Shown piece by piece: positions 2,356 through 54,061 of a DNA stretch of 64,000 bases (positions are counted from its first letter, which is position 1; every line of letters starts with the position of its first letter). Under the pieces are notes generated by a model. The model was not told the origin of the DNA. It saw only the letters and a list, made by a program, of their open reading frames with translations, and searched no databases. Made by a program: the position numbers and the translations under genes. Origin of the DNA: Ignavibacteriota bacterium (lineage in GTDB: Bacteria > Bacteroidota > Ignavibacteria > UBA10030 > UBA6906); the NCBI GenBank assembly GCA_963752915.1, contig CAVVZZ010000002.1:129092-193091 (forward strand), written 5' to 3'.

Positions 2356-2694
2356 TCAGATCTCCACGCTCTGCGTATGGCGGTCCCAGCTCAGAAGAAC
2401 ACGATACATTTCGACGCACTGCTGAAGGTCGGGTTCCGGAGAAAGATACAGTTCACCGAGGATCTCCCTGAATCGGAGAAGCTCCTTCCTCTTCCCCGAC
2501 CATTGCGGGTCATCGGCACAGAGGTCAAGGAGTTCGAATGCCCGCTCGAAGCACCCCTTGACGGGAGAAAAAACCCTCTTCCCCAAGAGGGATTTCGCCC
2601 GGGCGAATTCAGATCCGATCATAAGGATCTGCTGATGAATCGGAAACCGGATCCATCGCTCGTGCGTCAGATGTTTGTGGTGCCTTTCAGCCAT
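2356..2694 (-). CDS. hypothetical protein (about 112 aa), distal ORF of the hyp transcription unit
   Basis: ATG at 2694-2692 overlaps the stop of the upstream ORF (ATGGCTGA). Alpha-helical, no recognisable family. Confidence 0.35.
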   Translation of the reverse strand: MAERHHKHLTHERWIRFPIHQQILMIGSEFARAKSLLGKRVFSPVKGCFERAFELLDLCADDPQWSGKRKELLRFREILGELYLSPEPDLQQCVEMYRVLLSWDRHTQSVEI

Positions 2695-2696
2695 CG

Positions 2697-3056
2697 TCAG
2701 ATGCTCACCCAACTCCGGACAATTTCATCCACGGAACGTCGAATATCATCGGACGCAATCTCCATCCCGTTGTTATCAACACTCGGTCGAATGTTGATGA
2801 GAGAGATGTATTCGACGTGCGGCGGGACGGCCCACGGCCAAAGATTTCCTCCCCAGAGATCCGACTGTTGTGAGCCGGATTCCAGGAGGACCAGTTCGGC
2901 ATCAGCATGCATTTCCCCGCCGAGTGCGATCCTCCGCTGTGAAATGTCGACAACGAACTTGATCATTTCTGGAAAAGGATTGGCACGGAACGCATCGATC
3001 TCCACTCGTGCGAGTGGTTTCGTAGGAATGACGATTGGCACGCGCGTTTCGCTCAT
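2697..3056 (-). CDS. hypothetical protein (119 aa) immediately downstream of hypE
   Basis: Same strand, 17 nt after the hypE stop. GC-rich third positions. No family recognised. Confidence 0.4.
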   Translation of the reverse strand: MSETRVPIVIPTKPLARVEIDAFRANPFPEMIKFVVDISQRRIALGGEMHADAELVLLESGSQQSDLWGGNLWPWAVPPHVEYISLINIRPSVDNNGMEIASDDIRRSVDEIVRSWVSI

Positions 3057-3073
3057 GGCAATGGCCCCTCCGG

Positions 3074-4144
3074 TCAGCAGATTCGGGGGAGTTGTTCCCC
3101 TGAGAGCATATCGACCACCCTGCTTCCTCCAATGGTTGTCTTCATCACGACGGTACCTGCATGCTCGGCGACGACTTTGCCGATTGCTCTCGATTCCATT
3201 CCGGCGGGATGGCGACGCATAGCGGCAAGTACGCGGTCGGCGTGCGAAGCAGGAACAAATGCAAGCAGCTTACCCTCATTGGCAACATACAACGGATCGA
3301 ACCCGAGGATCTCACATGCTCCACGCACTTCATCGGGTATCGGGATGGAGGATTCGTCCAGGAGCATGCCGACCTTTGCAGCTTTCGCGATTTCATTTGT
3401 CGCGCTTGCCACACCGCCCCGCGTCGGGTCACGCAGGACATGGATATCGGGGCATGCCTCGAGCATTGCGGCCACAAGACTATGGAGCGGCATCGTATCA
3501 CTTTTGATCTGTGTTTCGAACTCCAACCCTTCACGGACCGACATGATCGCCATGCCGTGGACTCCGATCGGTCCGTTGACAAGGATCACGTCTCCGACAG
3601 CGGCCCGGTCGGGACGGATCGTCACCCCTTGTCTGACCGCGCCGATCCCGCTGGTGGTAATGAAGATCCCGTCCCCTTTGCCCCGGTCGACCACTTTGGT
3701 GTCACCGGTCACGAGAGACACTCCGGCCGCCTCTGCTGCACGCTGCATTGCCTGGACCACCCTCCAGAGATCGTCAAGCGGGAACCCTTCTTCAAGAATG
3801 AAGGCCGACGAGAGATACTGTGGGATCGCGCCGCACATTGCCAGGTCGTTAACTGTCCCATTGACCGCCAGTTCGCCGATGTTCCCGCCGGGAAAGACGA
3901 TCGGTTTCACTACATAGGAATCCGTCGTCATCGCCAGAGTTACCCCTCCGATTTCGACGATCGCTCCGTCGTGCTGTTTCGCAAGCTCAGGGTTGTTGAA
4001 CTGGGGCACGAACAACTTCTCGATCAACTGCTGTGTCAGTTTTCCTCCGCCCCCGTGGGCAAGAAGAATCTGCGGATAGTCGGAAATCGGGATCGGGCAT
4101 GCAGGCCCTTGGGCGAAGTCGTAGCGGGAAGAATCAGGATTCAC
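3074..4144 (-). CDS. hypE: hydrogenase expression/formation protein HypE (carbamoyl dehydratase)
   Basis: AIR-synthase-like fold motifs (ILLAHGGGG, GDTKVV, TTSGIG). Start taken at GTG 4144, which forms a GTGA overlap with the stop of the upstream MFS gene; the track ORF extends to 4285 with a non-homologous N-terminus. Confidence 0.85.
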   Translation of the reverse strand: MNPDSSRYDFAQGPACPIPISDYPQILLAHGGGGKLTQQLIEKLFVPQFNNPELAKQHDGAIVEIGGVTLAMTTDSYVVKPIVFPGGNIGELAVNGTVNDLAMCGAIPQYLSSAFILEEGFPLDDLWRVVQAMQRAAEAAGVSLVTGDTKVVDRGKGDGIFITTSGIGAVRQGVTIRPDRAAVGDVILVNGPIGVHGMAIMSVREGLEFETQIKSDTMPLHSLVAAMLEACPDIHVLRDPTRGGVASATNEIAKAAKVGMLLDESSIPIPDEVRGACEILGFDPLYVANEGKLLAFVPASHADRVLAAMRRHPAGMESRAIGKVVAEHAGTVVMKTTIGGSRVVDMLSGEQLPRIC

Positions 4145-5304
4145 GTTCGCGACTCTTGCGGTTGTTGAACGAAGACCAATAGCACGGTGGCCAGCGTCGT
4201 GAGGATGAGCGACACGAGCAACGGAAGTGATGGGGAGACCCTGTCCCAGAGGATCCCGGTAAGGAGTGACGACGGGAGCGCACACAATCCGACCACCATC
4301 TGGAACCCACCGAGGGTGCTTGCCCGAAGATCGGCCGGAGCGAGCTCCGCAACGAGGGCTTTTTGAACCGGCTCGAGAGCGGCCTTATGCGTCCCGTAGA
4401 GTACGAAGGCGACGATCACTGTCGCGACCGACCGTTCAAAAAGAAGAATCCCACACAACGCTCCCCATAAGGCAAAGGACATCGCCAGGACATTTCTCCG
4501 GCCGAGAGTGTCGGAGAGCCGACCGAACGGCAGGGAGAGCAACGAGGCCATCAACGTAAAGAGAAGATAGAGCAACGGGGTCAATGGTTGCGGCACTCCT
4601 CCCTCGACTGCGTACAGCATCAGAAAAGAATAGCTGAAGGCCGCAAGGGAAAACAAGGCATTGAGAACCAGGAACATGGTGAAGTTCCGGTCCAGGCGTT
4701 GGAACGAGAGCCCTTTGAAGATTGCGCCGCCGGCGACGGGCTTCTCTCGCACTCTCGCCATGACAAGGCCGACGGCAAACAATGAAGGAATCGCAGCAAG
4801 CATAAACAGCGTGCTGTAACCGAGGTGGAGAAATCCCATGCAGAACACGATGCCGAACACTGCGCCCAGATTGTCCATCGATCGTAGTAGACCGAAGTTT
4901 CTGCCCCGGTTGGCATTGGTGGAGGCATCGGCGACCATGGCATCCCGCGGCGAGCCCCGCATCTTGCCGGCACGATCGAGCGCCCGGCAGAGAATCAACT
5001 GAGGCCACGCGGCCGAAAGGGCATAGCCGACACGCGACACCGCTCCGAAGAGATACCCCAGCCAGATGAATATCTTTCGCCTCTTCAGCCTGTCGGAGAG
5101 ATAGCCCGAGAATGCCTGTGAGATCGAGACCAGCGCTTCGCCCAATCCGTCGATGAGCCCGAGGATCTCCTTGTTCGCTCCGAGCGACGACACGAAGAAC
5201 GGCCAGATCGGATAGATCGCGTCCGACCCGAAGTCATTCAGAAATGAGGCGGCCGCAAACGTCCGGACGGTGGACCGGGATTCCTTTTGAGACTCTTCTG
5301 CCAT
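4141..5304 (-). CDS. MFS-family transporter embedded in the hyp operon
   Basis: About 12 predicted hydrophobic segments. Duplicated MFS signature G(Y/R)LSDRLKRRK and GRLSDTLGRRN. Confidence 0.75.
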   Translation of the reverse strand: MAEESQKESRSTVRTFAAASFLNDFGSDAIYPIWPFFVSSLGANKEILGLIDGLGEALVSISQAFSGYLSDRLKRRKIFIWLGYLFGAVSRVGYALSAAWPQLILCRALDRAGKMRGSPRDAMVADASTNANRGRNFGLLRSMDNLGAVFGIVFCMGFLHLGYSTLFMLAAIPSLFAVGLVMARVREKPVAGGAIFKGLSFQRLDRNFTMFLVLNALFSLAAFSYSFLMLYAVEGGVPQPLTPLLYLLFTLMASLLSLPFGRLSDTLGRRNVLAMSFALWGALCGILLFERSVATVIVAFVLYGTHKAALEPVQKALVAELAPADLRASTLGGFQMVVGLCALPSSLLTGILWDRVSPSLPLLVSLILTTLATVLLVFVQQPQESRT

Positions 5305-5307
5305 GCG

Positions 5308-5778
5308 TTATGTCGGCACCACGGGGACACGCGGGAGCCGTCCCGTGAGCTTGCGGAAACCCCGGTGCCAGGAATGGGGAAAGACGTCCTTCGCGAGAAA
5401 CATCAGGAGGCACTCTCCGTGCGTCTCAGACATCTGGTGATCATGGCAGAACTGGATGGCCTCCTGCGACTCGGCGCCCTGCTGCATCCAGATGTTCGTG
5501 ATGCCGGAGGCAAACGCATCTTTCACCACCGATGCCGATTCTGCGGGCGGGACAACAACCACGATACCGTCCACCTTCCCTTTGAGATCGCTGACAGACC
5601 GCGCCATGGAGATTCCGTCGATTACTCCCCCCTGGCGATTCACCGGAATTGCAGTGTAGTGGTGCTTTGTGAGCTCGCGGTATACGCTTGCGCCAAATTC
5701 CTTGCCGCTCCGGGAGACGCCGACGACAGCCAGCCGTCGCAGTCCAAGGAACCGTGCGATGGTCTCACCCTTTTCCAT
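5308..5778 (-). CDS. CoA-binding domain protein (YccU/YneT-like)
   Basis: RLAVVGVSRSGKEFG Rossmann-like N-terminus and IWMQQG motif typical of the CoA_binding_2 family. 3-nt gap to MFS and 8 nt to hypD. Confidence 0.7.
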   Translation of the reverse strand: MEKGETIARFLGLRRLAVVGVSRSGKEFGASVYRELTKHHYTAIPVNRQGGVIDGISMARSVSDLKGKVDGIVVVVPPAESASVVKDAFASGITNIWMQQGAESQEAIQFCHDHQMSETHGECLLMFLAKDVFPHSWHRGFRKLTGRLPRVPVVPT

Positions 5779-5786
5779 GTTCTCAC

Positions 5787-6881
5787 CTATGTATTTTCAG
5801 TCTTGCGGAAATGATAGTATGCCGCGCATGCCCCTTCGGACGAAACCATTGGTGCACCGAGCGGACGCTCGGGAGTGCATTCCCGGCCGAAGGCAGGACA
5901 CTCATGCGGCTTCTTCCTGCCCTGAAGCACTTCTCCCGCAATGCACAGCGGAGATTCACGCGTCGTGATCCCTTCCACGGGAAAGATCTTCTCAGCATCA
6001 TAGAGCTCGTACCGGTCGCGAAGACGATAGCCGCTCATCGGAATCGTGCCAATGCCGCGCCATTTCCGGTCGACGATTTCAAAGACGTCCCGGATGATGT
6101 TCTTTGCCTGGGGGTTTCCCTCCGGCCGGACGACGCGGGCATATTCGTTTTCGACGATCGACTTCCCCTGCTCGAGCTGCGCCACCGTCATCGCAATGCC
6201 CTGAAGCAAGTCGAGGGGCTCAAATCCTGTGACGACAATCGGCACGTTGTAGGTTTTCGAAAGCGGATGGTACTCTCCGGTCCCCATGACGGCACAGACA
6301 TGGCCGGCAGCAAGAAATCCCTGCACCCGGTTGTCGGGTGAACCCAAGATTGCGCTCATCGCCGGGGGGACAAGGACATGGGAGACGAGCATCGAGAAAT
6401 TGTTCACACCGAGCCTGCTTGCCTGGACAACCGCCATCGCGTTCGGCGGCGCCGTTGTCTCGAATCCTACAGCAAAGAAGACGACTTTCTTATCCGGATG
6501 CTGCTGCGCGATCTTCACTGCATCGAGCGGGGAGTAGACCATCCGGACGTTCCCTCGTTCCGCCTTGACCGCAAGGAGGTCCTTGTCGGTCCCCGGCACC
6601 CGCATCATGTCACCGAACGATGTGAAGATGACATCGTCGCGGGAGGCAATCGCAATCGCCTTGTCGATCATCTCGAGAGGAGTAACGCAGACCGGACAAC
6701 CGGGTCCGTGAACGAGGGAAAGGGAGTCCGGGAGGAGTTCTTCAATGCCGTATTTGACGATCGTATGCGTTTGCCCACCGCAGATCTCCATGATCGTCCA
6801 TGGCCGGCTCGTGAGGGCGCGTATGTGCGCCGCCACCTTCTCGGCGTTTTCACGATCGCGATATTCGTCTACGTAGCGCAT
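5787..6881 (-). CDS. hypD: hydrogenase maturation factor HypD
   Basis: Conserved [13 protein letters not shown] and CxxHVC motifs, about 364 aa. Confidence 0.9.
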
Positions 6882-6888
6882 GCGGTCA

Positions 6889-6919
6889 GTTGACAGTTAA
6901 CAGTCGACAGTTGACAGTT
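6889..6919. repeat. 4.5 x 7-bp tandem repeat GTTGACA in the hypC-hypD intergenic region, containing two TTGACA hexamers and HpaI/SalI-like palindromes
   Basis: GTTGACA GTTAACA GTCGACA GTTGACA GTT. On the transcript (minus) it reads CUGUCAA-like heptads. Confidence 0.45.
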
Positions 6920-6939
6920 CGTTTATCCATTGTCCCATC

Positions 6940-6980
6940 GTCCCCAAGTCTCCCCCTCTCCGCTTCTCCCCTTCTCCTCC
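6940..6980 (-). promoter_or_regulatory. about 40-nt polypurine (GGA-rich) tract on the hyp transcript between hypC and hypD
   Basis: Minus-strand transcript reads GGAGGAGAAGGGGAGAAGCGGAGAGGGGGAGACUUGGGGAC: five GGA motifs, one pyrimidine in 32 nt. Confidence 0.35.
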
Positions 6981-7229
6981 TCACCCCTTCTCGTCGGCGT
7001 CGTCAAGCTCTCCCATCTCCCGGAGCAGGCTCAGCGTCTCCAGCGCTTCTTTCTCATCCACGGTATTGAGCGCAAATCCCACATGGACAATCACGTAGTC
7101 GCCTTCCTTCACTGCCGGCACCCATTCGAGGCATACCTCTTTCGTCACCCCGGCAAAACTAACCACCCCCATCATCGGTTCAACAGACCGATCGATCGAA
7201 AGAACTTTACCCGGAACGGCGAGGCACAT
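6981..7229 (-). CDS. hypC: hydrogenase assembly chaperone HypC
   Basis: 82 aa, starts MCLAVPGKV (essential Cys2), HupF/HypC family. Confidence 0.88.
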   Translation of the reverse strand: MCLAVPGKVLSIDRSVEPMMGVVSFAGVTKEVCLEWVPAVKEGDYVIVHVGFALNTVDEKEALETLSLLREMGELDDADEKG

Positions 7230-7258
7230 ATGGAGTATCCTTTATAAAGACCGACTGC

Positions 7259-9557
7259 CTATGGCTGAAGGACGAGCGCTGCATAGAGCTGGCCCAGCGA
7301 GATCCCTCCGTCATTCGGAGGCACGCGTTGATGCCAGTACGGTCGGAATCCATGGTCTCGGAGCATTGTGACCGAGAGCGTCGTCAGTAGGGCATTTTGA
7401 AAGCAGCCGCCGCTGAGGACCACGCGATCGAGGCCAACCTGCTGTGCGACGGCCACGATACCCCGGGCAAGCGCGGAATGAAACCCGTACGCGATCGCTG
7501 CGACCGGCGTTCCCCGCCTGACTGCCTCGAGCATTTGACGAACGCCCGGAATCCAGTCAAGCACGAGCGCCGGAGACGTCTCCGTTTCTTTCTCGGAAAT
7601 TGTTGCCAGGGGCAGGGACAATGTCAACGCCAGAGTCGACCGAAGATGCAAGCCACTCCAATTCCATCGCTGCCTGCCCTTCGAACGAAGCACGCTGACG
7701 GATACCCAGGAGCGAGGCAACGCCATCGAACAGACGGCCGGCGCTTGTGGTCCGCGTCGCATTGATCCTGCGTTCAATCGCCCGGTACACGAGGCGAAGT
7801 TCCTCTTTGCTCCATTCTGCGAAGCACGGAAGTTCTGCAATACCGGGATCATCTCTCCGGAAACATTCGTAGACCATTCCCGAGGCAGAGCGACGAGGCT
7901 CATGCACAGCCGCATCGCCACCTGGAAGAACAAACGGGCGCAGCATCGCTGCTCTCCGGGACCCCTGCGCACCAACCACGAGGAACTCGCCTCCCCAGAT
8001 CGTCCCATCATCCCCCCATCCGGTCCCATCCCAGGCAACCCCGAGGACATCACCCGTCAGGTTGTTCTCGGCCATACATGCGGCAATATGCGCGTGGTGA
8101 TGCTGGATCCTTCTCACCGGCAATCCCATCCCTGCGGCTTCCCCTGTTGAAATGTAGTCAGGATGCTTGTCAGCCACAACAGCACGGGGGACGAGTTGAT
8201 AGAGGCGGACAAAATCCTTGATTGTCGATCGGAACGAGGCAAGCGATTGTTCCGTCTCGAGGTCTCCGAGATGCTGGCTGATGAAAATCGAGTTTCGCCG
8301 GGCGACCGCGACCGTATTCTTCAAATGTCCCCCAACGGCAATCGCGTCTGGCAGCGGTTCTCCAACGCTGACAGGCAACGGGGCATATCCCCTTGAGCGC
8401 CGGAGCACCAGATCTCTGTCGAGCAATACCCGAACTACGGAATCATCGACATACCGGACGATAGGGCGGTTATGGACCAGGAACAGGTCCGCGATGCCGG
8501 CGAGCCGGACGAGTGCTTCACGCTCGTCGGTGCAAATCGGTTCATCCGTGAGGTTCCCGCTGGTCGCGACAACGGGACGGGCCACCTTCTTGAGGAGAAG
8601 GTGGTGAAGCGGAGTATACGGGAGCATGATGCCGAGGGTGGGATTCCCCGGAGCGACGTTCCCGGCAATGAAAGACAACGGAGCGGCGTCCTCTTTCTTT
8701 TTCAACAACACGATCGGTGATTCCGGGGACCGGAGAAGACGTTCTTCGAGCGGCGACACAACGCACACGCTTCCCGCGGTCCGGATGTCCGGCACCATGA
8801 TCGCAAGCGGTTTCTCTTCACGACGCTTCCGCGCACGCAACGTCGCAACGGCATGCTCGTTGGTTGCGTCAACCATCAAGTGAAAGCCGCCGAGCCCCTT
8901 GAGCGCGACGACCTTTCCAGCAAGCAGCGCATCGCTCGCGGCCTCCAGCGCACGGTCATGGTCGGCGACGATGGATCCGTCGGGATTCCACAACTCCACG
9001 TGAGGTCCGCACGTCGGACAGGCATTCGGTTGGGCATGAAACCTCCGGTCGCCGGGGTCCTCATACTCCTTCCTGCACTCATCGCACATGTGAAATTTGT
9101 CCATCGACGTGTTCGGGCGATCGTAGGGCAGGGACGTAATGATCGTAAATCGCGGTCCGCAATTCGTGCAATTCGTGAACGGGTACCCGAACCGCCGGTT
9201 GGCGGGGTCCATGATTTCGGCGAGACATTCAGGGCATGTCGCTATATCGGGCAGGACAAAGGTCGATACCTCTCCGCTCCCGTCACTCTCGCGGATGGAG
9301 AATGACGAATATCCGGCACCGTCGAGGTAGGAATACTCGAGACTCTGGATGGACGCTCTCGCCGGTTTCTCCGGCTCGATTCTGAGAAGAAAGTGTTCAA
9401 CCTCACGATCTTCCCCTTCCGCGTCAATCACCACGCCGGACGTCGCGTTCATAACCCACCCCGCGAGCCGATGTTCGCCCGCAAGCCGATAGATAAAGGG
9501 ACGAAACCCGACCCCCTGGACGGCGCCACGGATTTCGATATGCACGCGCTTCGGCAT
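7259..9557 (-). CDS. hypF: carbamoyltransferase HypF; reading frame interrupted by an apparent 1-bp frameshift near 7605-7640 (sequencing error or pseudogene)
   Basis: N-terminal acylphosphatase domain, two Zn-finger CxxC pairs, YrdC-like and Kae1-like domains in ORF 7557..9557. The conserved C-terminus (LDWIPG...AAIAYGFH...LSGGCFQN...VPPNDGGISLGQ) is in a different frame (ORF 7259..8053). Confidence 0.8.
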
Positions 9558-9587
9558 AGAGAGGAAGACGTCTGCTGATGGATGTCA

Positions 9588-9612
9588 CCATCATCCGTGT
9601 TCTGGATGATGG
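9588..9612 (-). promoter_or_regulatory. perfect 9-bp inverted repeat hairpin between hoxW and hypF
   Basis: CCATCATCC-N7-GGATGATGG, about 30 nt upstream of the hypF start. No U-tract. Confidence 0.3.
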
Positions 9613-9654
9613 GGCAGAGTAAGGATTTTCTCAGAGAGTTGCCACGGCAGGCGA

Positions 9655-10101
9655 CTAGACCGGCGTCCAGCCGTCCACCAATCGCCGCACGACGGTCACG
9701 CTTTGGTCGATCGCCGCCTGTGTTGCTGCCGACACGCGTTCGGTGAACGAGAAATCTGTCGCAGGAATTCCGACCAGGTAGACGTGTTCAGGGACTGTCC
9801 CGTAGAGGGAGTTGCAGAGAGCGAGGAGCTGGGAGGGAGAGAACAGATGCGAATCAACGGGCGGCACCGGGACGGTATTGCCGATCGACGTACAGACGAG
9901 TTCATCGGTTCCCGCTGCTGCGTCGAGGAAGATGACCAGATGACGATGCGACAGGGACTCGGCGATCTCCGGCTGAATATCATGAACGATGAGAACGTCG
10001 ACCTCCGGGATCGTCTCACGCACGCGTTGCGCAGCGACGACACCGGCGGCATCATCGCCCCGCAATGTATTGCCATAGCCAATCACCAGCGGCGGGATCA
10101 T
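9655..10101 (-). CDS. hoxW: hydrogenase maturation endopeptidase (HoxW/HybD family)
   Basis: [15 protein letters not shown] and later H residue, characteristic of [NiFe]-hydrogenase C-terminal processing proteases. 4-nt overlap with the hoxH end. Confidence 0.8.
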
Positions 10102-11525
10102 CGCACCCGTTCGTCCAACACGTGGTCTGCGCTATCGACCACCCGGACATGGAGCGGCATGCTTCCGATGGCGTGGGTGGAACAGGAAAGACAGGGATCA
10201 AAACACCGGATCCCCGCTTCAATCCGGTTCAGCAGGCCTTCGGTGATTTTTGCCCCGTCCAGGTATTGGATGGCAAGCTGTCGCACCGTGCGGTTCATTG
10301 CCAGATTGTTCTGCGCCGTGGCGATCAGAAGATTGACATGCTGGAGCACGCCGTCCTGATTCACCCAGTACTCGTGGAACAGCGTCCCGCGTGGCGCCTC
10401 GCTCGCCCCGATCCCGTGCTCGCGGTTGATCATGGCGCGCGACCGGACCTTCTTGCCGAGGAGAGCCGGATCATTCAGGAGCTGCTCGACTTTCTCGACT
10501 GCGAACAGGAGCTCGATCAGCCGGGCATAATGGTAGTAGAAGGAGTTGTTCACGACGCCCTCCTCCCCTGCCAGCATTTTGAAACGCTTGCGTTCTTCTT
10601 CCGCGAGGGGGGTTGGGATGTAATCGCAGATGTTCACCCGGGCAAGGGGACCGACCCTGTACATCCCCTTCGGATAGCCCATCGGCTTGTAATACGGGAA
10701 CTTGAGATACGACCACGACTCCGATGCTTCGCCGAAGTGTTGACTGTAGTCGGCGGGATCAATCTTGTCATTGAGGATATTCCCGCCACTGTCGGTGACG
10801 CGGAGTGCTCCGTCGTAGTATTCGAGAGCACCGTCCTTCGCCACGAGACCCATGAACAGTGAACGGAAATTCCCGAAGTTCGGGATGTCCTTTTCGAGTC
10901 GGGTATGGATTTCCTTCAGCCGGTCCAGCGCCAGGAGCGATGTTTCCTTTGCCTCGGGGATCCAGGCGAGCAGCGTGTCGCGTTTCGCCGCTTCAAAGGG
11001 CTCGCGCACTCCCCCGGCGACCGCCCAGGGAGTATGGATTTTCCTGCTCCCGAGAACTTCGATGATTTCCTGTCCGAATTTCCTCAGGCGGATTCCGCGA
11101 CGCGCAAATTCCTTGTCCTTCTCGATCAGGCCGAACACGTTGCGGAGAGCGGGATCGCTATCGAAGCCCAGGAGAAAATCAGGCGACGACAGATGGAAGA
11201 AACTCAGCGCATGGGACTGGATCCACTGTGCAAGGGTAATGATGCGGCGGAGGACCTCCGCCGTTTCGGGGATGCCGACCGCGAGGATTGCATCTCCCGC
11301 TTTCGCGGAGGTAATCAAATGACTTGTGGGACAGATTCCGCAGATCCGCGACGTGATCCCGCCCATCTCCCACATCAGGCGGCCTTCGCAAAACTTCTCA
11401 AAGCCACGGAACTCGTTCACATGAAACCGCGCATCTTCCACCGACCCGTCATCATTCATCCGGATGGTGATCTTTGCATGCCCTTCGATCCGTGTTACGG
11501 GCGCGATGGTGATTGTTCTCGACAT
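10098..11525 (-). CDS. hoxH: [NiFe] hydrogenase large subunit, bidirectional NAD(P)-linked type (HoxH)
   Basis: N-terminal [10 protein letters not shown] and C-terminal [12 protein letters not shown] (Ni-binding Cys pairs plus protease cleavage site). Strong similarity pattern to cyanobacterial HoxH; start at Met38 of the track ORF ([16 protein letters not shown]). Confidence 0.9.
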
Positions 11526-11568
11526 TCGATCCTCGAAAAGTGAACTGAGAAAGCCGCCGCTTCCACGG

Positions 11569-12105
11569 TTATCCGTACCGGAGATACACCGGGGAGAACG
11601 CGGGCATTCTTCCTTCCAGGAGTTCCTGGATGGCAAACCAGATGGTGTCGGCGGTGGGCGGACAGCCGTGAATGAAGGCGTCGACGGTGATGATCTCGTG
11701 GAGCGGGCGCGCGGTTGTCAGAAGCTCGGCGATCGTCGGATAGTCGCGCGGTACCTGCGGCGTCACGTCCGCGAGTTCCACATAGGCACGGTCAAGCACG
11801 ACGTCCCGGTCATAGGCATTCCGGAGCGCAGTGACGTTCCCGGAGACGGCGCAGTCTCCGAAGGAGACGACGAACCGGGAATTGCGCCGGACCTTCCTTG
11901 CCTCCTCCGCATTCTCATTGTTCGTGACCGCACCTTCCACCAACGTCACATCCACATCGCGCGGAAACTCCTTGATGTCCGCAAGCGGGGAGTAGACAAG
12001 GTCGATCTTCCCGGCGAGCTCGATCAGTCGCTCGTCCATGTCGAGAAACGACATATGGCACCCCGAACACCCGCCCAGCCAGACTGTTGCAACTCTCGGT
12101 TTCAT
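11569..12105 (-). CDS. hoxY: [NiFe] hydrogenase small subunit HoxY
   Basis: [17 protein letters not shown] motif of NuoB-like hydrogenase small subunits. Start at the internal Met ([10 protein letters not shown]). Confidence 0.85.
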
Positions 12106-12118
12106 CGGTTCGTGGCTC

Positions 12119-12850
12119 CTATTCGTCTTCATGGATGTTGATCCACTCGCGTTTCAGCCGCGCAGTGACAATGTATTTCAGAAAGTCCGTCTTCTTTTCC
12201 ATCTCTGCGACGTTCTCCCCCTTCGTGATCAGGGCTCCGGTGGGGCAGACGAGGACGCACTTGCCGCATGCCGTGCACGATTCGGACTCACCCCACGGCT
12301 GGTTCATATCGGCAATGATGGTGCAATGGATGCCGCGGTTCGCGATGTCCCACACGTGCGCGCCCTCCACCTCGTGACACACCCTGACGCAACGGTTGCA
12401 CAGGACGCACCGGTTGTGGTCCATGATGAAATCTTTGTGCGTGGCATCAACCGTCTTCCGCGGATACAAGTACGGGACCCGCGTGTGTGTCAGGCCGACC
12501 TCATAGGCCAGGTTCTGCAGCTCGCAGTGGTTGTTCACGATGCACACGGCGCACTGGTGGTTGCCTTCAGAGGCAAGGAACTCGATGATGGTCCGACGGT
12601 GCCGTTGCAGGCGCTCGGTATTGGTCCGGACGACCATCCCTTCCTGCGGCCGTGTTGTGCACGCCGGGAACAGCTTCGGGGATCCTTCGATTTCCACCAG
12701 GCAGAGCCTGCACGCGCCCACATCGGAAAGCCCGTCCAAATGGCAGAGCGTCGGAATCCGGATGCCGTGCTGAGTGGCAATTTCGAGAATGGACTCCTCG
12801 TCGTTCCCGCTGAGCTGTTCGCCATCGATTGTCAGAGTGAGAATTGCCAT
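12119..12850 (-). CDS. hoxU: diaphorase subunit HoxU (2Fe-2S plus 4Fe-4S, NuoG-like)
   Basis: N-terminal 2Fe-2S ferredoxin Cys pattern (CHLDGLSDVGACRLC) followed by CxxCxxC 4Fe-4S motifs. Confidence 0.85.
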   Translation of the reverse strand: MAILTLTIDGEQLSGNDEESILEIATQHGIRIPTLCHLDGLSDVGACRLCLVEIEGSPKLFPACTTRPQEGMVVRTNTERLQRHRRTIIEFLASEGNHQCAVCIVNNHCELQNLAYEVGLTHTRVPYLYPRKTVDATHKDFIMDHNRCVLCNRCVRVCHEVEGAHVWDIANRGIHCTIIADMNQPWGESESCTACGKCVLVCPTGALITKGENVAEMEKKTDFLKYIVTARLKREWINIHEDE

Positions 12851-12861
12851 GAGCGTCCCTG

Positions 12862-14511
12862 TTATGCGTGCTGTATTCCGGAATCCTTGCCGGACGGGAC
12901 GAACCCTTCCGACGGGATCAGGAGCTTTTCATATTCATGACGGAAAAACCGCAACGTGGATAGCACGGGGTTGGGAGCCGCCTGTCCGAGGCCGCAAAGA
13001 CTGGTCTCTTTTACCATCGTGCAGAGTTCCTCCAGCAGCGCGAGATCCTCTTTTGTCCCCTTTCCCGCGCTGATTTTGTCAAGCAGTTTGAAGATGTGGA
13101 CGGTCCCGACCCTGCACGGGATGCATTTCCCGCACGACTCATCCATGCAAAAGTCCATAAAGTATTTCGCGACGTCGACCATTCCCGACGTTGAATCCAT
13201 GACAATCATGCCGCCGCTTCCCATTATGGAGCCCACCGTCGCGAGCGATTCATAATCCACGGGGAGATCGAGATGTTCCCGGGGGATGCAACCACCGGAC
13301 GGACCTCCCGTCTGGGCGGCTTTGAATTCCGTCCCTTCCGGTGTCCCTCCGCCGATATCGAAGATGATCTTCCGCAGCGGGATGCCCATCGGGACTTCGA
13401 TGAGGCCGGTATTCCGGATGTTTCCTGCAAGCGCGAAGACTTTTGTGCCCGTGCTCTTCGGCGTCCCGATGGAGGAGAACCAGGCGCTCCCCTTCCTGAT
13501 GATCGGCGCGACGTTCGCGTAGGTCTCAACATTGTTGATGAGGGTTGGCTTGCCCCAGAGGCCGCGTTCGGATGGATACGGAGGCCGGGGACGCGGACGT
13601 CCGCGCTTGCCTTCGATCGACCTGAGCAATGCGGTCTCTTCGCCGCAGACAAATGCGCCTGCGCCGATGCGAAGATCGATCCGGAAGTTGAATTGCGATT
13701 CGAAGATCCTGTTGCCGAGAAGGCCGAGACGCTCCGCCTGTTTGATCGCCAGCCGGAGCCGGTCGATCGCCAGCGGATATTCCGCGCGCACATAGATGTA
13801 TCCCTGATTCGCGCCCACCGCGTATCCGGCGATCGCCATTCCTTCAAGAACACGATGCGGGTCCCCTTCGAGAACCGATCGGTCCATGAATGCGCCGGGA
13901 TCGCCTTCGTCGGCGTTGCACACGGCGTACTTCTGGTCGCCCTTGGCTTTCCGGACAATTCCCCATTTCAATCCGGTCGGATACCCGGCTCCGCCTCTGC
14001 CGCGAAGGCCGCTCTTGCGTACCTCCTCGATGACGTCCGGCGGCTGCATCTCGGTCACGACCTTTGCCAACGCCTCATAGCCGTCTGCAGCGATGTACTC
14101 TTCGATGCTTTCCGCATTGATCTTGCCGCAGTTCTCAAGGACGATCTTGTGCTGCGCCGCAAAGAACGGGGCATTGTTGTCAAGAAGATGATCGTCGATC
14201 TTCTTCCCTCGGACAAGATGGTCTTCGACGATCTTCCTGCCGGTCGCATCGTCGACCCGTTCGTACACGCTCCCGTCAGACGAAACCTTCACCAGGGGAC
14301 CTTCACCGCAAAGGCCCATGCAGCCGGTCCCCAGCACCTCGACCTCTTTTTCGAGGCCGTGTTCTGTCAACGCCTTCTTGATGGCGTCGCGGGCGGCGAG
14401 ACTGCCGCAGGAAACACATCCGGCGGCGGCGCAATAGAGTATGCGATCGCGAAACTTCTTTTGACGATTGCGCTCTTCCTCTGCAAGCTCACGCAGGTCT
14501 TCGACGGTCAT
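12862..14511 (-). CDS. hoxF: diaphorase flavoprotein subunit HoxF (NuoF-like, NAD(P)H/FMN-binding)
   Basis: [20 protein letters not shown] site, CGKCxPCR 4Fe-4S, N-terminal thioredoxin-like 2Fe-2S segment. ATGA overlap with the hoxE stop. Confidence 0.9.
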
Positions 14512-15065
14512 GCTGCCACCTCCGCTGGCTGTTCCTGCCATTTCTTGATCCGGTCGACTGCACTGTCAGCAGTCAGCTTTCCCGCGACGTTATTGTCGAC
14601 CACCGCAACCGGGGCAAGCCCGCACGACCCTACACAGCGGGCGGACATCAGCGATACCTTGTTGTCGGCGGTCGTCTCTCCGAGTTTACAGTTGCAGTAC
14701 TGTTCCACGGCTCTCTGAATCGCCTCCGCGCCTTTCACGTGGCATGCCGTCCCCGTGCAAAGCACAAATGTGTGCTCGCCCTTGGGCTTGAGCGCGAAAA
14801 AGTGATAGAACGTCGCCACCCCGTACACCCGGCTCAGGGGGAGTTTCAATGATCGGGCGACATAGATCAGGAGATCGTTTTCGAGGAATCCGAAAATCCC
14901 CTGCGCTGCATGGAGGACTTCGATCAGCGCGTCACCGCTGTTATGATGTTTCGTGATGGCGCGATCGAGCAGCTTGAATCGATTATCGCCGCTGGGATGC
15001 TGTAAAGGAGTATTCAATGGAGTGTTCGAATTGATGAGAGATCCGGTAACAGTTGCCGGGTGCAA
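14508..15065 (-). CDS. hoxE: diaphorase subunit HoxE (NuoE-like 2Fe-2S); start codon uncertain (TTG at 15065 or downstream)
   Basis: [12 protein letters not shown]...LIEVLH...[10 protein letters not shown]...CVGSCGLAP, matching the NuoE/HoxE family including the cyanobacterial-type N-terminal extension. Confidence 0.8.
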
Positions 15066-15310
15066 AGAAAGTCAGTGGATTAACCAATGTGCAATCGGCA
15101 TGCCACAGAAATTCGCAGATCCAGAGGACAATTGGCGGCAGGACTGGGTGAGCCTCGATCTCCTTTTCACAAATAGGAATTTTCGGCCGTTGCGAATGTC
15201 AGCAGTAACGACTCGGAAAGATCGTTGGGAGATCCAGTGTCTCGATGGAAGATGCTTGGAAGAGCAGCGGAAGCGTACGGCCGGGTCGACCGGCCAGAGC
15301 ATCACACGAC

Positions 15311-15976
15311 TCAGATCGCAGGGTTCGACGGCCGTGATTGCTGGACCAGCCATTGACACCATTCCTCCATCCCGGCGTTCGTCAGAGCGGAGGTCTCGAA
15401 GATCGTGAGATGGGGATTGATCGAGAGAGCGTTCTTCCGGAGAACCTCCGGTCGGGCATTGATATATGGAACGAGGTCGATCTTGTTGATGAGAAGCACG
15501 CCCGCATTCCGGAACATCGCGGGGTACTTCAAGGGCTTGTCATCCCCTTCGGTCGTGCTCGCGACCACGACCTTCACATTCTCGCCCAGGTCATAGTTCG
15601 CCGGGCAGACAAGGTTTCCGACGTTTTCGATCACGAGGAGATCAAGCTCGGAAAGCGGGATCGCTGCCAGTGCCTCGCGGACCAGGTTCGCTTCAAGGTG
15701 ACACCCCCCACGTGTTACGATTTGCACCGCAGGGATGCCGTAGCGTTCGATGCGCCGTGCATCGATGTCGGTTTGCACATCGCCCTCGACGACGGCAAGA
15801 CGGACCTGCCCCTTGAGAAGCTCGATCGTCTTCTCCAGGATGGTGGTCTTCCCTGCCCCCGGAGAGCTTACCATATTAATGACGTACACGCCGTTCTCCG
15901 TGAACAGCGTCCTGTTCCGGAGCGCGACTTCATCATTCTTCTCCAGGACTTTTCGTTCGATCGTAAGGACACTCAT
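15311..15976 (-). CDS. hypB: hydrogenase nickel-incorporation GTPase HypB
   Basis: P-loop SPGAGKTT, CH motif, ENVGNLVCP (G-domain with metal-binding Cys). Confidence 0.9.
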   Translation of the reverse strand: MSVLTIERKVLEKNDEVALRNRTLFTENGVYVINMVSSPGAGKTTILEKTIELLKGQVRLAVVEGDVQTDIDARRIERYGIPAVQIVTRGGCHLEANLVREALAAIPLSELDLLVIENVGNLVCPANYDLGENVKVVVASTTEGDDKPLKYPAMFRNAGVLLINKIDLVPYINARPEVLRKNALSINPHLTIFETSALTNAGMEEWCQWLVQQSRPSNPAI

Positions 15977-16347
15977 GTGACACCCTCTTCCGCATCGTCC
16001 AGTTCAACTTCAAGAACGCGCATTTCCGTGCCGCCCGTGATCTCCCCTTCAGTACTCCCGCAGTGCGGGCACAGCATCATGCCATCGGCCGGAGTGGAGG
16101 TGGCACCGCAGGACCGGCAGCGTATCGTAAATGGAACCGTTTCGATGGCGAGGCGGGCACGGGTGAATGGAGACTCCGCGACGATGGCTTCAAAACAAAA
16201 CTCCAACGAATCGGCCACGATCCCTGCCTGCACGCCGACGACGACCTTGACCGTCCGGACGAGCGACCGCTCTTTCTGCGGGACATACCGCTCGACGATG
16301 GAAAGAATATTCTCGGCAATGGAAAGCTCATGCACGGAATTGCTCAC
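15973..16347 (-). CDS. hypA: hydrogenase nickel-insertion protein HypA
   Basis: MHELS N-terminal motif and C-terminal CxxC...CxxC zinc site. ATGA overlap with hypB. Confidence 0.85.
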   Translation of the reverse strand: MSNSVHELSIAENILSIVERYVPQKERSLVRTVKVVVGVQAGIVADSLEFCFEAIVAESPFTRARLAIETVPFTIRCRSCGATSTPADGMMLCPHCGSTEGEITGGTEMRVLEVELDDAEEGVT

Positions 16348-16820
16348 CGTTCCTTTCCGTTCTCCTCCGGCGGCTGCCAGTCGATCCCATACCAGAGCAC
16401 GTACCCGTCGCCGGCGTTGTCTTCGTCAAGGCTGACGTAGGTGTCCCCGCTCAACCACTGCCAGAAATTGGATTCGGTGACCTTGCCTTCGCCGAAGCGA
16501 TCCGTCAGATAGGACAGCAACGATGTGGTATTGTCGCGCCCGCGCGTCATGATCACGATCCCGGAGAATGCACCGTTGTTGAACTCGAATTCGCAGTCCT
16601 CCAGATCCGCCTTCCCAAGACTGTCGACCCGCACCTTCACCTGATCCGCCCGTTCATCCAACTCCGATGGTGAGAACGAACCCGTGCGCTCTATGCGCAG
16701 ATACGGCGTTCCCCAGGGATATCCCGGGAAATCCGGTTTCGTTTGACTGCCGGCTGAGCACGTCAGACCCAGGACAACGATCAGAATCCGCGTAACCATG
16801 GAAGCTCGGGGAAACGCCAT
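16344..16820 (-). CDS. secreted/lipoprotein-like hypothetical protein, first gene of the hyp-hox transcription unit
   Basis: Signal-peptide-like N-terminus (ILIVVLGLTCSAGSQ). 4-nt overlap with the hypA start. No family recognised. Confidence 0.5.
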   Translation of the reverse strand: MAFPRASMVTRILIVVLGLTCSAGSQTKPDFPGYPWGTPYLRIERTGSFSPSELDERADQVKVRVDSLGKADLEDCEFEFNNGAFSGIVIMTRGRDNTTSLLSYLTDRFGEGKVTESNFWQWLSGDTYVSLDEDNAGDGYVLWYGIDWQPPEENGKER

Positions 16821-16902
16821 GGTACGGTGCCGCCTATCCGAACCGCAGGAATATTTTCATCTCCCTCTCGCGGAATTACCCGGAACAAGCACGTTGTTGA
16901 TC

Positions 16903-16954
16903 ATTGTAGGGAACCCCGTCCTGAATTGCAATTGGGCCAAAGCATCTCTATAAT
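16903..16954. promoter_or_regulatory. back-to-back divergent sigma70-type promoters sharing one palindromic -35 (AATTGCAATT): TTGCAA-N17-TATAAT toward glnD (+) and TTGCAA-N17-TACAAT toward the hyp/hox unit (-)
   Basis: Plus strand: TTGCAA 16926-16931, 17-nt spacer, TATAAT 16949-16954, about 33 nt before the glnD ATG. Minus strand: the same hexamer read in reverse, 17-nt spacer, TACAAT (plus ATTGTA 16903-16908). Confidence 0.55.
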
Positions 16955-16986
16955 TCCAACAGGCCAAAATTCCCATACCACTATCC

Positions 16987-19647
16987 ATGTCGACGACTGA
17001 CAAAGCTTCTGCAGCGTTCAAGTCGCATCTGGACGCTGCGCGCGACGAGAACATCAGGGCTTTCCGTGCCGACCGCGACGGCATCGCCCTCTGCACCTCC
17101 ATGACGCAGTCCATGGACCGGGCACTGGCTGAAGCGCATGCGCTTCTCCCCTCGTCCGACGGTGAGCGGATTGCGATTCTCGCGCTCGGGGGCTATGGAC
17201 GCAACGAGCTGTTCCCCCATTCCGACGTCGATGTCATGATTCTTGTCCCCGAAGGGGAGAAAGGTTCTGGCTCGGGGTCCGTCGCAAAGGAATTTCTCCA
17301 CCATCTCTGGAACGCGGGGCTCACTGTCGGGCACAGTGTCCGGACCATCGAGGAGGCGCTCATGCAGTACGGCGCCGCGATCGATGCCTGGATTTCGATG
17401 CTGGAATGCCGGCAGATCTGCGGGAACACGGCGCTCTACGACGGTCTTCGTGATGCGATTCGGAAGAAGATGCGCGCCTCCGATAAGCACTGGTTCATCG
17501 CTTCAACCCTCGAAGAAGCCAATGCACGGCATTCCCGCTACGGGAGCTCCGTGAAACTCCTGGAACCGAACGTCAAGAAGAGTGCTGGGGGCCTGCGCGA
17601 CCTGCAAACAGTCTACTGGTTGTACCGGGGATGCGAAGAGGGCTATCTGGACTTTCCGTCGCCCTCGAAACCGGCGACCGTGACGTTCTTGGACAGGCTG
17701 CACGAGGATGGGGTTCTGAATGACGATACACACCAGTCCGCTGTCGCCGCGCTCGCGTTTCTCTTTCGCGTCCGCGGGGCGATCCACAGCGATCGCGATA
17801 CGCCGAACGAAACCCTCGAGTATGCGCTCCAGCGAAGCGTTGCTGAACAACTCGGCTACAACGAGGAAGGCGGGCTGCGCTCCGTGGAAGTCTTTATGCG
17901 CGACTACTACCGTCACGCCCGTACCGTCCATAGCCTGTTCCACAGACTCGGGGGCAGGTTTCATGAACAGTTGCTCCCCCCTCGACGGATCTGGAACCGC
18001 GGCAAGAAAGCGGGCAGCGCCTTTCGTCTGCGGGAGGACAAACTCGTTCTCGACGATCCATCAACGCCGCTGGCCTCTGCCGACCAGGTGCTCGAAGCGT
18101 TCGAACTCGCCGCGGGAAACGGGGCTGAGATTGACACGATCCTGCGAAGCGCGATCGAACACGCCTCCACACTGATCACCCCGGAAACAGGCGCAACACA
18201 AACAGGCGCCGCAACGCTCAGGAAGATCTTTCTCTCTTCCCGGGTCGGCCTGACACTCCGGGCCATGAATGACACCGGCATTCTCGGACGACTCGTCCCG
18301 GAGTTCGGCGACCTCATCGCCTTCTTCCAGCACAACGTCTACCACTACTACACCGCGGACGAACACACGCTGATCGCGCTGGCGAATGCGGAGGCGCTCC
18401 GCGACTCCCAGGGATTTCTCCACGAAGTCTTCCGGACGCTGCGCCACCGGGAATTGCTCTATCTCGCGACCTTCCTCCACGACATTGCAAAACCACTCGG
18501 GGTCTCCGATCACGAGATTACCGGCGTGCCGATTGCGAAGAGCGTCGTGACACGCATGGGCTTCGCCGAGCTCGCCGACGATGTCGGATTTCTCGTCCGG
18601 CACCATCTGGCCATGGAACAGATCGCGTTCCGTCGGAACATCAACGACCCGGCGACGATCCGTGAGTTCGCGGGGAAGTTCGACAATCCGGCATTGCTGG
18701 AGTATCTCTACCTGCTGACGTTCGCGGACCTTTCCGCGGTCAACCCCAGCGTCTGGACCGAATGGAAAGCGCTGATGCTTCAGGAGCTGTATCAGCGGAC
18801 GTCGGAAGTCCTCCTTCGGAACCTGAAGGGGGAGGAAGTGGACCGGATGCACTCCGCGCGAAAGGAGGAAAAGAAGCTCGAGATTGTGCGGGAACTGCGT
18901 TCGGAATTCCCTGAAGCAAACATCATGAAACATCTGGACGGTATCCCGAATGCCGCGTACACCTCGGTGTTCTCCCCCGGCGAGATCGGCAGGCATCTCC
19001 GGCTTGGGACACTGCGCGAAGGGGTCGACCTCCACTTCGAACACGGCGAGGGATGGACCGAAGTGACGATCATCGCACCCGACGCTCCCGGCGCGCTTTC
19101 GAAATTCTGCGCGGTCCTCGCAGCCAACGACGCCTCCATCTTCACCGCCGATATCTTTACCCGGGACGATGGAATTATCTTCGACCGCTTTCGCGTCCAC
19201 GACATCTCTTCAGGAGGAGTGCTCACGCAGAAGAGCTGCACGAAGATTAAGGAAGACGTCCGGAACGTCCTGACCGGGGCACTCGAAATTGATCAGCTGT
19301 TCCTCGAGCATCATCGGAAATGGAAACGGCGGCCGAAAAAGCCGGAGAATCCAAATATCCGGACGGATGTCCAGTTCGAGGATTCGCCCTCGTTCACGAT
19401 CATCGACGTGTATGCCCCCGACCGGGTGGGGTTCCTGTACCGGGTGACCGAAGCGATATCGCGCGCCGGGCTGGATATCTTCTTCGCGAAAATTGCAACC
19501 CGGGTTGACGGTATCGTGGATGCCTTCTATGTCCGGGAGCGCGCCACCGGTCTTCCCGTCACCGATCCGACGAGAAAGAATGACGTCACGCGTGGGATCA
19601 TGTCCGCCCTGCAAAGCATGGCCCTCAGGGAATTGACGGGAGAATAA
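16987..19647 (+). CDS. glnD: [protein-PII] uridylyltransferase/uridylyl-removing enzyme GlnD
   Basis: N-terminal nucleotidyltransferase (GGYGRNELFPHSDVDV), HD domain (H..HD..K), two C-terminal ACT domains. 886 aa. Confidence 0.85.
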   Translation: MSTTDKASAAFKSHLDAARDENIRAFRADRDGIALCTSMTQSMDRALAEAHALLPSSDGERIAILALGGYGRNELFPHSDVDVMILVPEGEKGSGSGSVAKEFLHHLWNAGLTVGHSVRTIEEALMQYGAAIDAWISMLECRQICGNTALYDGLRDAIRKKMRASDKHWFIASTLEEANARHSRYGSSVKLLEPNVKKSAGGLRDLQTVYWLYRGCEEGYLDFPSPSKPATVTFLDRLHEDGVLNDDTHQSAVAALAFLFRVRGAIHSDRDTPNETLEYALQRSVAEQLGYNEEGGLRSVEVFMRDYYRHARTVHSLFHRLGGRFHEQLLPPRRIWNRGKKAGSAFRLREDKLVLDDPSTPLASADQVLEAFELAAGNGAEIDTILRSAIEHASTLITPETGATQTGAATLRKIFLSSRVGLTLRAMNDTGILGRLVPEFGDLIAFFQHNVYHYYTADEHTLIALANAEALRDSQGFLHEVFRTLRHRELLYLATFLHDIAKPLGVSDHEITGVPIAKSVVTRMGFAELADDVGFLVRHHLAMEQIAFRRNINDPATIREFAGKFDNPALLEYLYLLTFADLSAVNPSVWTEWKALMLQELYQRTSEVLLRNLKGEEVDRMHSARKEEKKLEIVRELRSEFPEANIMKHLDGIPNAAYTSVFSPGEIGRHLRLGTLREGVDLHFEHGEGWTEVTIIAPDAPGALSKFCAVLAANDASIFTADIFTRDDGIIFDRFRVHDISSGGVLTQKSCTKIKEDVRNVLTGALEIDQLFLEHHRKWKRRPKKPENPNIRTDVQFEDSPSFTIIDVYAPDRVGFLYRVTEAISRAGLDIFFAKIATRVDGIVDAFYVRERATGLPVTDPTRKNDVTRGIMSALQSMALRELTGE

Positions 19648-53645: not shown

Positions 53646-54060
53646 GTGACCATGGCGATCATCACAGATCATGACGAGATCAAGGAGATTCTCCGCACCG
53701 CGCAGACGATTGCAGTGGTGGGACTGTCAGACAGGCCCGAGCGGGACAGTTTCCGGGTAGCCCGGTATCTCCAGTCGCAAAACTACCGGATCATCCCCGT
53801 TAACCCGCTTATTCCATCAGCGATCGGGCTTGCATGCGCGCCCGATCTCGAGAGCATCAGGGAGCCGGTCGACATTGTCGATGTGTTCCGGCGCTCTGAA
53901 TTCGTTCCTGCAATCGTCGAATCGGCGATTCGCATTCACGCCCGGACCGTCTGGTTACAGGTAGGCATTGTTCACCAGCGAAGCAGCGGCCCGCGCCGAC
54001 GCCGCCGGGCTGAATGTTGTGATGGACCGATGCATCATGGTGGAACACCGATTCCCTTGA
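53646..54060 (+). CDS. CoA-binding domain protein (YccU-like paralog); apparent 1-bp insertion frameshift near 53976-53980
   Basis: IAVVGLSDRPERDSF...VWLQVGI in frame. Conserved C-terminus [26 protein letters not shown] is in the +1 frame, ending at TGA 54058-54060 just before the next ATG. Confidence 0.6.
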
Positions 54061-54061
54061 C

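Follow-up and report, generated by a model that had tools for sequence, protein, structure and literature searches.

The 64-kb window analysed here, that is, the whole stretch of 64,000 nucleotides (nt) taken from contig CAVVZZ010000002.1 of an Ignavibacteriota assembly, carries on its minus strand an uninterrupted 14.5-kb run of genes (from 16820 down to 2356) which, judged by its sequence, is a standard group 3d NAD-coupled bidirectional [NiFe] hydrogenase locus (hox) together with its maturation machinery (hyp). Two genes that encode a predicted coenzyme A (CoA)-binding protein and a transporter of the major facilitator superfamily (MFS) are inserted between hypD and hypE, and they are the main subject of this analysis. 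The source lineage is an uncultured member of the Bacteroidota related to Ignavibacteria and Chlorobi, and public records describe its nearest relatives as metagenome-assembled genomes (MAGs) of uncultured Bacteroidota. In a six-frame listing of open reading frames (ORFs), scanned against Pfam and NCBIfam, the order of the genes is secreted protein, hypA, hypB, hoxEFUYH, hoxW, hypF, hypC, hypD, CoA-binding protein, MFS transporter, hypE, DUF5674 protein and orf118. All the genes named in the original prediction lie on the minus strand at essentially the positions that it gave, and the family matches, listed below, strongly support these assignments.

16344..16820, minus strand: small secreted protein of 158 amino acids (aa), leading the hypAB unit; no Pfam or NCBIfam match
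15973..16347, minus strand: hypA, nickel metallochaperone (PF01155, 3.8e-29), with two CxxC motifs
15311..15976, minus strand: hypB, GTPase (PF02492 cobW, 4e-21), with CH and ENVGNLVC motifs
15164-15179, minus strand, starting at 15179: conserved upstream box TTCCTATTTGTGAAAA (TTCCyAnTTGTGAAAA across relatives)
15090..15105, minus strand: predicted sigma-54-type -24/-12 promoter element TGGCATGCCGATTGCA, upstream of hoxE
14508..15065, minus strand: hoxE (PF01257, 2Fe-2S_thioredx, 8.5e-44), likely start at TTG 15017
12862..14541, minus strand: hoxF, NAD- and FMN-binding diaphorase subunit (Complex1_51K, 5e-46; NADH_4Fe-4S, 3e-34)
12119..12850, minus strand: hoxU, iron-sulfur subunit (Fer2_4 and NADH-G_4Fe-4S_3)
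11569..12132, minus strand: hoxY, hydrogenase small subunit (Oxidored_q6, 5e-29)
10098..11525, minus strand: hoxH, group 3d [NiFe] large subunit of 475 aa (NiFeSe_Hases), with L1 and L2 motifs
9655..10101, minus strand: hoxW, C-terminal maturation endopeptidase (TIGR00072, 4e-20)
7259..9557, minus strand: hypF, frameshifted (ORFs 9557..7557 and 8053..7259)
6981..7229, minus strand: hypC (PF01455, 2.5e-26)
5787..6881, minus strand: hypD (PF01924, 2.3e-153)
5308..5778, minus strand: YccU/PF0725-like CoA-binding protein of 156 aa (CoA_binding_2, PF13380, 1.3e-22)
4141..5304, minus strand: MFS transporter of 387 aa (MFS_1, PF07690, 1.1e-40)
3074..4144, minus strand: hypE, 356 aa from GTG 4144 (TIGR02124, 3.6e-140), with C-terminal PRIC
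2697..3056, minus strand: DUF5674 protein (PF18924, 7.6e-27)
2356..2712, minus strand: orf118, a conserved ORF of 118 aa; no family match

The hydrogenase itself is conventional. HoxH carries the N-terminal motif RxCGxCxxxH at residue 60 and the C-terminal motif DPCLSCSTH at residue 443, the latter being followed by a 24-aa tail for HoxW, and it is 87-93% identical to proteins of relatives that carry PF27537 (HoxH). The domains of HoxE, HoxF and HoxU are those of a diaphorase (homologues of NuoE, NuoF and NuoG) and their genes adjoin hoxY and hoxH. The assignment to the group 3d NAD-linked bidirectional hydrogenases follows from these diaphorase genes and from the PF27537 matches of the relatives’ HoxH. 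Among the maturation proteins, HypA has its two CxxC motifs, HypC begins with MC, HypD contains CPVC and GFETT, HypE ends in PRIC and HypF has two zinc fingers.

For a few of these genes the longest ORF is probably not the gene. Specifically, the longest ORF of hypA opens at GTG 16347, while an in-frame GTG at 16335 reads GTG CAT GAG (Met-His-Glu) and is most likely the true start, restoring the canonical MHE nickel-binding N-terminus; the importance of this N-terminal motif for HypA is well established. The stop codon of the secreted protein gene overlaps hypA by 4 nt or lies 8 nt from it, depending on which of the two starts is chosen. The lengths of the relatives’ proteins likewise point to starts at 14511 for hoxF and 12105 for hoxY, and favour TTG 15017 for hoxE, the HoxE proteins of relatives being 169-171 aa long. 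The ORFs at 15072-15362 and 16857-17114 were considered and rejected as genes, as they match no family and overlap the promoter region or glnD. An Rfam scan of the whole window gave zero matches.

The whole run had been proposed to be a single unit, joined by 4-nt overlaps or short gaps. The GTGA overlap does occur, but gaps of 245 nt (hypB–hoxE), 97 nt (hoxW–hypF) and 99 nt (hypC–hypD) do not fit that description, and because the first of them carries a conserved sigma-54-type promoter, at least two transcription units have to be assumed in place of one. The first would consist of the secreted protein gene, hypA and hypB, read from a 166-nt region shared with the divergent glnD. The second would start from the promoter in the hypB–hoxE gap and run through hoxEFUYH, hoxW, hypF, hypC, hypD, the CoA-binding gene, the MFS gene, hypE, the DUF5674 gene and orf118; no promoter-like element was seen in its short gaps, and a search of the other intergenic gaps gave no further sigma-54 element.

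The predicted promoter, TGGCATGCCGATTGCA at 15105-15090, fits the sigma-54 consensus TGGCAC-N5-TTGCW with one mismatch and is the sole such site in the window, where 0.04 would be expected. Its GG/GC core is invariant in four relatives. In the loci from relatives used for comparison, which are labelled here with L-numbers, a sigma-54-type element occurs at the matching position in L002, L009, L089, L174 and L175, with the box TTCCyAnTTGTGAAAA upstream of it. From this conserved promoter one can predict, in a form open to testing, how the expression of Hox is regulated in this phylum.

The inserted genes are not private to this contig, and one of the observations that would have refuted the original prediction, a lack of these genes in the hyp clusters of every relative, is not what the relatives show. 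The order hoxEFUYHW–hypFCD–CoA-binding–MFS–hypE is identical in L009, L002 and L089 (MFS identity 83%, 75% and 70%, respectively), and the GTGA coupling of the MFS gene to hypE, noted in the original prediction, is real and recurs in relatives. In L174, the closest relative, the order matches from the secreted protein gene to hypD, where the retrieved locus ends. At 67% MFS identity, L176 and L177 have hypD–MFS–hypE without the CoA-binding gene, the L176 cluster being otherwise identical.

At 58-61% identity the linkage of MFS gene and hypE persists even though hypE no longer lies with the rest of the hyp set (L003, L010, L014, L025 and L178). More specifically, the order is MlaE–MlaF–MlaD–MFS–hypE–ackA–pta in L178 (Ignavibacteria; 7423-14374), MlaEFD–MFS–methyltransferase–hypE in the Ignavibacteria-type L003 (7375-13674), DUF418–MFS–hypE in L010, nitroreductase–MFS–hypE in L014 (a Chlorobiaceae MAG), and simply MFS–hypE in L025, a short Ignavibacteriales contig. 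The MFS gene is thus followed by hypE behind four differing upstream contexts (hypD, MlaEFD, a DUF418 protein and a nitroreductase), and the HypE proteins of the distant MFS-linked loci end in PRIC. In L178 and L003 there is a 4-nt overlap of mlaD with the MFS gene, and hypE lies apart from all other hyp genes. Neither inserted gene was found in 80 other hypE loci from metagenomes (48-64% identity; MFS gene 0/80, CoA-binding gene 0/80), where hypD and hypE are mostly direct neighbours. Compared with L009, both inserted genes are under strong purifying selection, with a ratio of nonsynonymous to synonymous substitution rates (dN/dS) of 0.05 for the MFS gene and 0.16 for the CoA-binding gene.

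Beyond these loci, the transporter belongs to a large and dispersed family. Its match to MFS_1 extends over two stretches and its hydropathy peaks fit a polytopic protein. A survey of the family gave at least 2757 clusters at E<1e-10, and 586 genome loci were confirmed. Identities of 50-60% are kept between members from Aminicenantes, Syntrophales, Omnitrophota, Patescibacteria, Woesearchaeota, Micrarchaeota, Bathyarchaeia and Thermoplasmatota. The family is unusually conserved between bacteria and archaea and is present in reduced genomes of the candidate phyla radiation (CPR) and DPANN (loci L009-L088). No hyp or hox gene was found within 10 kb of the family’s loci elsewhere (about 70 loci). 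A universal gene partner was sought and rejected, since the neighbourhoods are lineage-specific; adjacency to MlaEFD is confined to one Ignavibacteria-like subclade. A specialised hypE-linked subfamily was rejected as well, since only three conservative diagnostic positions separate the linked copies from 76 unlinked ones, and the hypE-linked copies form two non-sister clades in a neighbour-joining tree, which carries no support values.

The CoA-binding protein is of the YccU/PF0725 type, with PDB entries 1y81 (1.4e-29) and 2d59 (6.6e-24) found in a profile search. The hyp-linked copy forms a tight subfamily (P0121-P0127). Residues C111, C123, H135 and H138 are conserved in the subfamily to which it belongs, the more distant members of which occur in unrelated contexts, next to acetyltransferases. 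The gene occurs in one narrow sub-lineage, and L176 lacks it; as both L176 and L177 have hypD–MFS–hypE without it, it is the younger insertion. Metagenome contigs from other Bacteroidota show that the junction of hypD and hypE is a recurrent insertion site for accessory genes. Proteins with the architecture of HypX (Formyl_trans and ECH) are encoded there in L125 (5187-6953), L126 and L139 (395-2194), and a TonB-dependent receptor in L128 (4666-6981), L133 and L155.

Taken together, these observations make it fairly probable, in our judgement, that the locus is a standard group 3d Hox/Hyp locus in which the inserted genes are embedded in the operon and co-expressed with it. In this lineage they are conserved parts of the predicted operon. 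The MFS protein would be an unspecialised orthologue of a widespread, anaerobe-associated transporter family that became operonically fixed upstream of hypE in this bacterial group, and because its gene would be fixed directly upstream of hypE, the two proteins would be made together. The CoA-binding gene would have been added later, at that same junction of hypD and hypE, in one sub-lineage. Co-expressed with the hydrogenase machinery, the inserted genes may provide a general transporter that is conditionally used when H2 is metabolised, or a non-essential helper. A role as dedicated nickel importer or obligatory maturation factor is less likely than such co-expression.

Several points weigh against so modest a role for the inserted genes, or against the regulation assumed here. 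The MFS–hypE pair has been kept through several rearrangements and across class-level divergence, which is a classic signature of functional coupling, so that to call the transporter a mere passenger may understate its putative link to HypE. The window also holds a second, canonical YccU-like CoA_binding_2 gene at 53646-54098 on the plus strand, which shares just 26% identity with the one in the hyp cluster. The hyp-linked copy is therefore an additional gene, and the presence of such a distinct, conserved paralogue beside the canonical one suggests specialisation. Moreover, since the hypD|hypE slot holds HypX or TonB-dependent receptor genes elsewhere, it is not neutral. Finally, the scanned ORFs of the window yielded no Sigma54_activat domain, and no gene for an NtrC-family activator was seen there.

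The set of maturation genes had been described as a complete HypABCDEF. HypA, HypB, HypC, HypD and HypE are intact with their motifs, but hypF does not form a single ORF: the frame is interrupted near 7627, so the set is complete only if the extra base found there is an assembly error. HypF reads from 9557 to 7557 (666 aa) and continues in another frame to 7259, as a 264-aa ORF. All HypF domains are present, the Pfam HypF_C_2 domain being divided between the two ORFs. Comparison with intact relatives by tblastn and blastn places one extra base near 7627 (within 7620-7635), in a poorly conserved linker, and HypF is unbroken in all five relatives compared, namely L002, L089, L174 and L176 (765-779 aa, from gene calls) and L009 (by tblastn). 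If the frameshift is real, this strain would have a recently inactivated maturation system in place of a working complete set, which we consider possible but doubtful. The extra base does put HypF into two frames at a site that is not a long homopolymer, and the partial deletion of orf118 in L002 indicates that local gene decay happens in the lineage. However, apart from the break both halves of HypF are intact, share about 70% identity with relatives and are free of a second lesion, and every other hyp and hox gene retains its catalytic motifs. The related contigs appear, from their record names, to be long-read MAG assemblies, in which single-base indels are common.

The standard locus with co-expressed inserted genes has to be weighed mainly against dedicated roles for those genes. 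The original prediction held the MFS protein to be a candidate transporter of a metal or another substrate for maturation, and the CoA-binding protein a candidate accessory factor. In its stronger form, with the MFS protein as the missing importer of nickel, another metal or a substrate and the CoA-binding protein as an accessory maturation factor, this seems unlikely to us. There is something to be said for it: both genes lie within the hyp block, a position that relatives have kept; translation of the MFS gene is coupled to that of hypE; the scan of ORFs within the window found neither a NiCoT nor a HupE/UreJ transporter; and a TonB-dependent receptor sits at the corresponding junction in other Bacteroidota. 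Nickel transporters of the MFS type (NreB and NrsD) are known. The case for a candidate transporter is nevertheless weakened by the breadth of the unspecialised family, whose members are 50-60% identical across phyla in neighbourhoods unrelated to hyp; CPR and DPANN lineages usually lack hyp genes altogether. Linked and unlinked copies differ at those three conservative positions only. The window protein has two histidines and the hypE-linked orthologues one to five, with no metal motif, no His-rich segment and no His-rich tail. Its best NCBIfam and PDB matches are weak ones to drug-efflux families, and no nickel-transporter family is found among its Pfam matches, the best 25 of its 26 NCBIfam matches or the listed PDB matches. 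The pairing, furthermore, is with hypE, which serves cyanide-ligand chemistry, and not with the nickel-handling hypA and hypB, and neither inserted gene is present in the 80 other hypE loci. Nothing in the sequence points to the MFS protein as a nickel transporter. As for the accessory-factor part of the proposal, the recurrence of the CoA-binding gene in the hyp clusters of L002, L009 and L089 speaks for it, while its absence from L176 and from the 80 other hypE loci speaks against it.

A different role for the CoA-binding protein, possibly acting with the MFS protein and HypE, would be in the anaerobic synthesis of the carbon monoxide (CO) ligand, with formyl-CoA or another CoA thioester as the source. 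Its gene would then fill the hypD|hypE slot that in aerobic Bacteroidota belongs to HypX, the CoA-dependent CO synthase. HypX makes CO via formyl-CoA, and a 2025 review calls the anaerobic CO source the most pressing open question and counts formyl-CoA among the candidates (PMC12134894). With HypX-architecture proteins in the corresponding slot of L125, L126 and L139, a separate hyp-linked paralogue that conserves two cysteines and two histidines, and ackA–pta following hypE in Ignavibacteria, the idea has some appeal, yet we think it very improbable. The gene is missing from the otherwise identical L176 cluster and from all 80 other hypE loci, and relatives without any link to hyp show these Cys/His features too. 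The protein consists of a binding fold and lacks a catalytic domain, and positional analogy is weak evidence. By the same analogy, and with a shade less likelihood still, CoA-binding protein, MFS protein and HypE might form an undescribed module, a counterpart of HypX, that supplies the CO ligand anaerobically from a CoA thioester or C1 precursor, in which case the MFS–hypE pair would mark an imported or exported intermediate.

While the hydrogenase and the Hyp machinery are textbook material, what is new here is comparative: the MFS gene has kept its place beside hypE through several rearrangements in Ignavibacteria, Chlorobiaceae and MAGs of other Bacteroidota, and one sub-lineage has gained a dedicated CoA-binding paralogue at a junction that is occupied elsewhere in the Bacteroidota by HypX or a TonB-dependent receptor. 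Should either inserted gene aid maturation, it would provide a handle on metal or ligand supply, including the question of where the CO ligand comes from in anaerobes; should neither do so, the locus would be a clean case of operon hitch-hiking. A literature search turned up no work on DUF5674, MFS genes within hyp clusters or the hox genes of this lineage.

At the head of the run, the small protein described earlier as a lipoprotein does have a signal peptide, and this is conserved, but the lipobox cysteine occurs in the window sequence only (0/7 homologues). Because the cysteine is not conserved, a protein secreted through signal peptidase I is more likely than a lipoprotein; the signal-peptide region of most of the seven homologues contains an Ala-x-Ala-Gln-like stretch. 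The family is small, with 8 clusters at 90% identity and about 210 representatives among 1.8 billion proteins in a profile search, and no Pfam family was found for its distant relatives. An AlphaFold2 (AF2) model reached a predicted local distance difference test (pLDDT) score of 66 and gave no PDB fold match. An EDCEFEF stretch is invariant in the protein, which also has a Trp-rich motif, FWQWL. The order secreted protein–hypA–hypB–hoxEFUYHW, divergent from glnD, recurs in L174 and L175.

At the other end, two ORFs had been listed as unknown. This holds for 2356-2712 (orf118), which has no family, but not for 2697-3056, which is a Pfam DUF5674 protein. The DUF5674 protein is 66% identical in L009 and L002, and its gene follows hypE only there and not in L089 or L176; orf118 is intact in L009, at 69% identity, and in L002 most of it has been lost, the final 24 codons having become joined to the DUF5674 gene. 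Given a dN of 0.26-0.28 (0.26 for orf118) with saturated dS against L009, both can be taken as real genes. Structure was of little help, since the single-sequence AF2 model of the DUF5674 protein had a pLDDT of 43 and was unusable, and PDB profile searches with both proteins gave no matches. A terminator-like hairpin with a T-run lies at 2574-2591 on the minus strand, inside the coding region of orf118. Within the run, the hypC–hypD spacer contains tandem heptamers of the TCAACTG type in about five copies (6887-6919) and a purine-rich repeat of 8/16 nt (6949-6992). Relatives carry other heptamer arrays at this spacer (L174:19763-19980; L009:8296-8421), and the arrays resemble the short tandem repeats of cyanobacteria.

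Among known systems, the closest in overall design is HoxEFUYH/HoxW/HypABCDEF of Synechocystis PCC 6803, which shares with this locus the subunit set, the domain architectures, the HoxH motifs with the HoxW-cleaved tail and, apart from the broken hypF, the Hyp complement. Unlike there, all genes here are in one 14.5-kb block with hypAB in front, the secreted protein, the CoA-binding protein, the MFS transporter, the DUF5674 protein and orf118 are additional, the host is a member of the Bacteroidota, and hypF is frameshifted in this assembly. In regulation the parallel is the soluble hydrogenase operon of Cupriavidus necator, likewise an NAD-linked group 3d operon behind a -24/-12 promoter. That operon depends on sigma-54 and HoxA, whereas here the promoter is a predicted one and no gene for an NtrC-family activator was seen in the window. 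With the nickel transporters HoxN/NiCoT, HupE/UreJ, NikABCDE and NreB/NrsD, the MFS protein has in common that it is a membrane transporter encoded within a hydrogenase maturation cluster, but it shows no sequence relationship to NiCoT or HupE, has no His-rich segment and belongs to a pan-phylum family. The CoA-binding protein is clearly akin in sequence to YccU, PF0725 (1y81), PH1109 and TT1466, differing from them as a divergent paralogue with a C-terminal extension that contains conserved histidines, and in being embedded in the putative hyp operon. HypX, in turn, a formyl-THF/CoA-dependent CO synthase that serves aerobic maturation, also uses CoA and occupies in other Bacteroidota the hypD|hypE junction where the CoA-binding gene lies here (PMC12134894, PMC6802093), but it combines a formyltransferase with an enoyl-CoA hydratase-like (crotonase) domain, whereas the window protein has CoA_binding_2 only, a 156-aa YccU-like domain with neither of the two.

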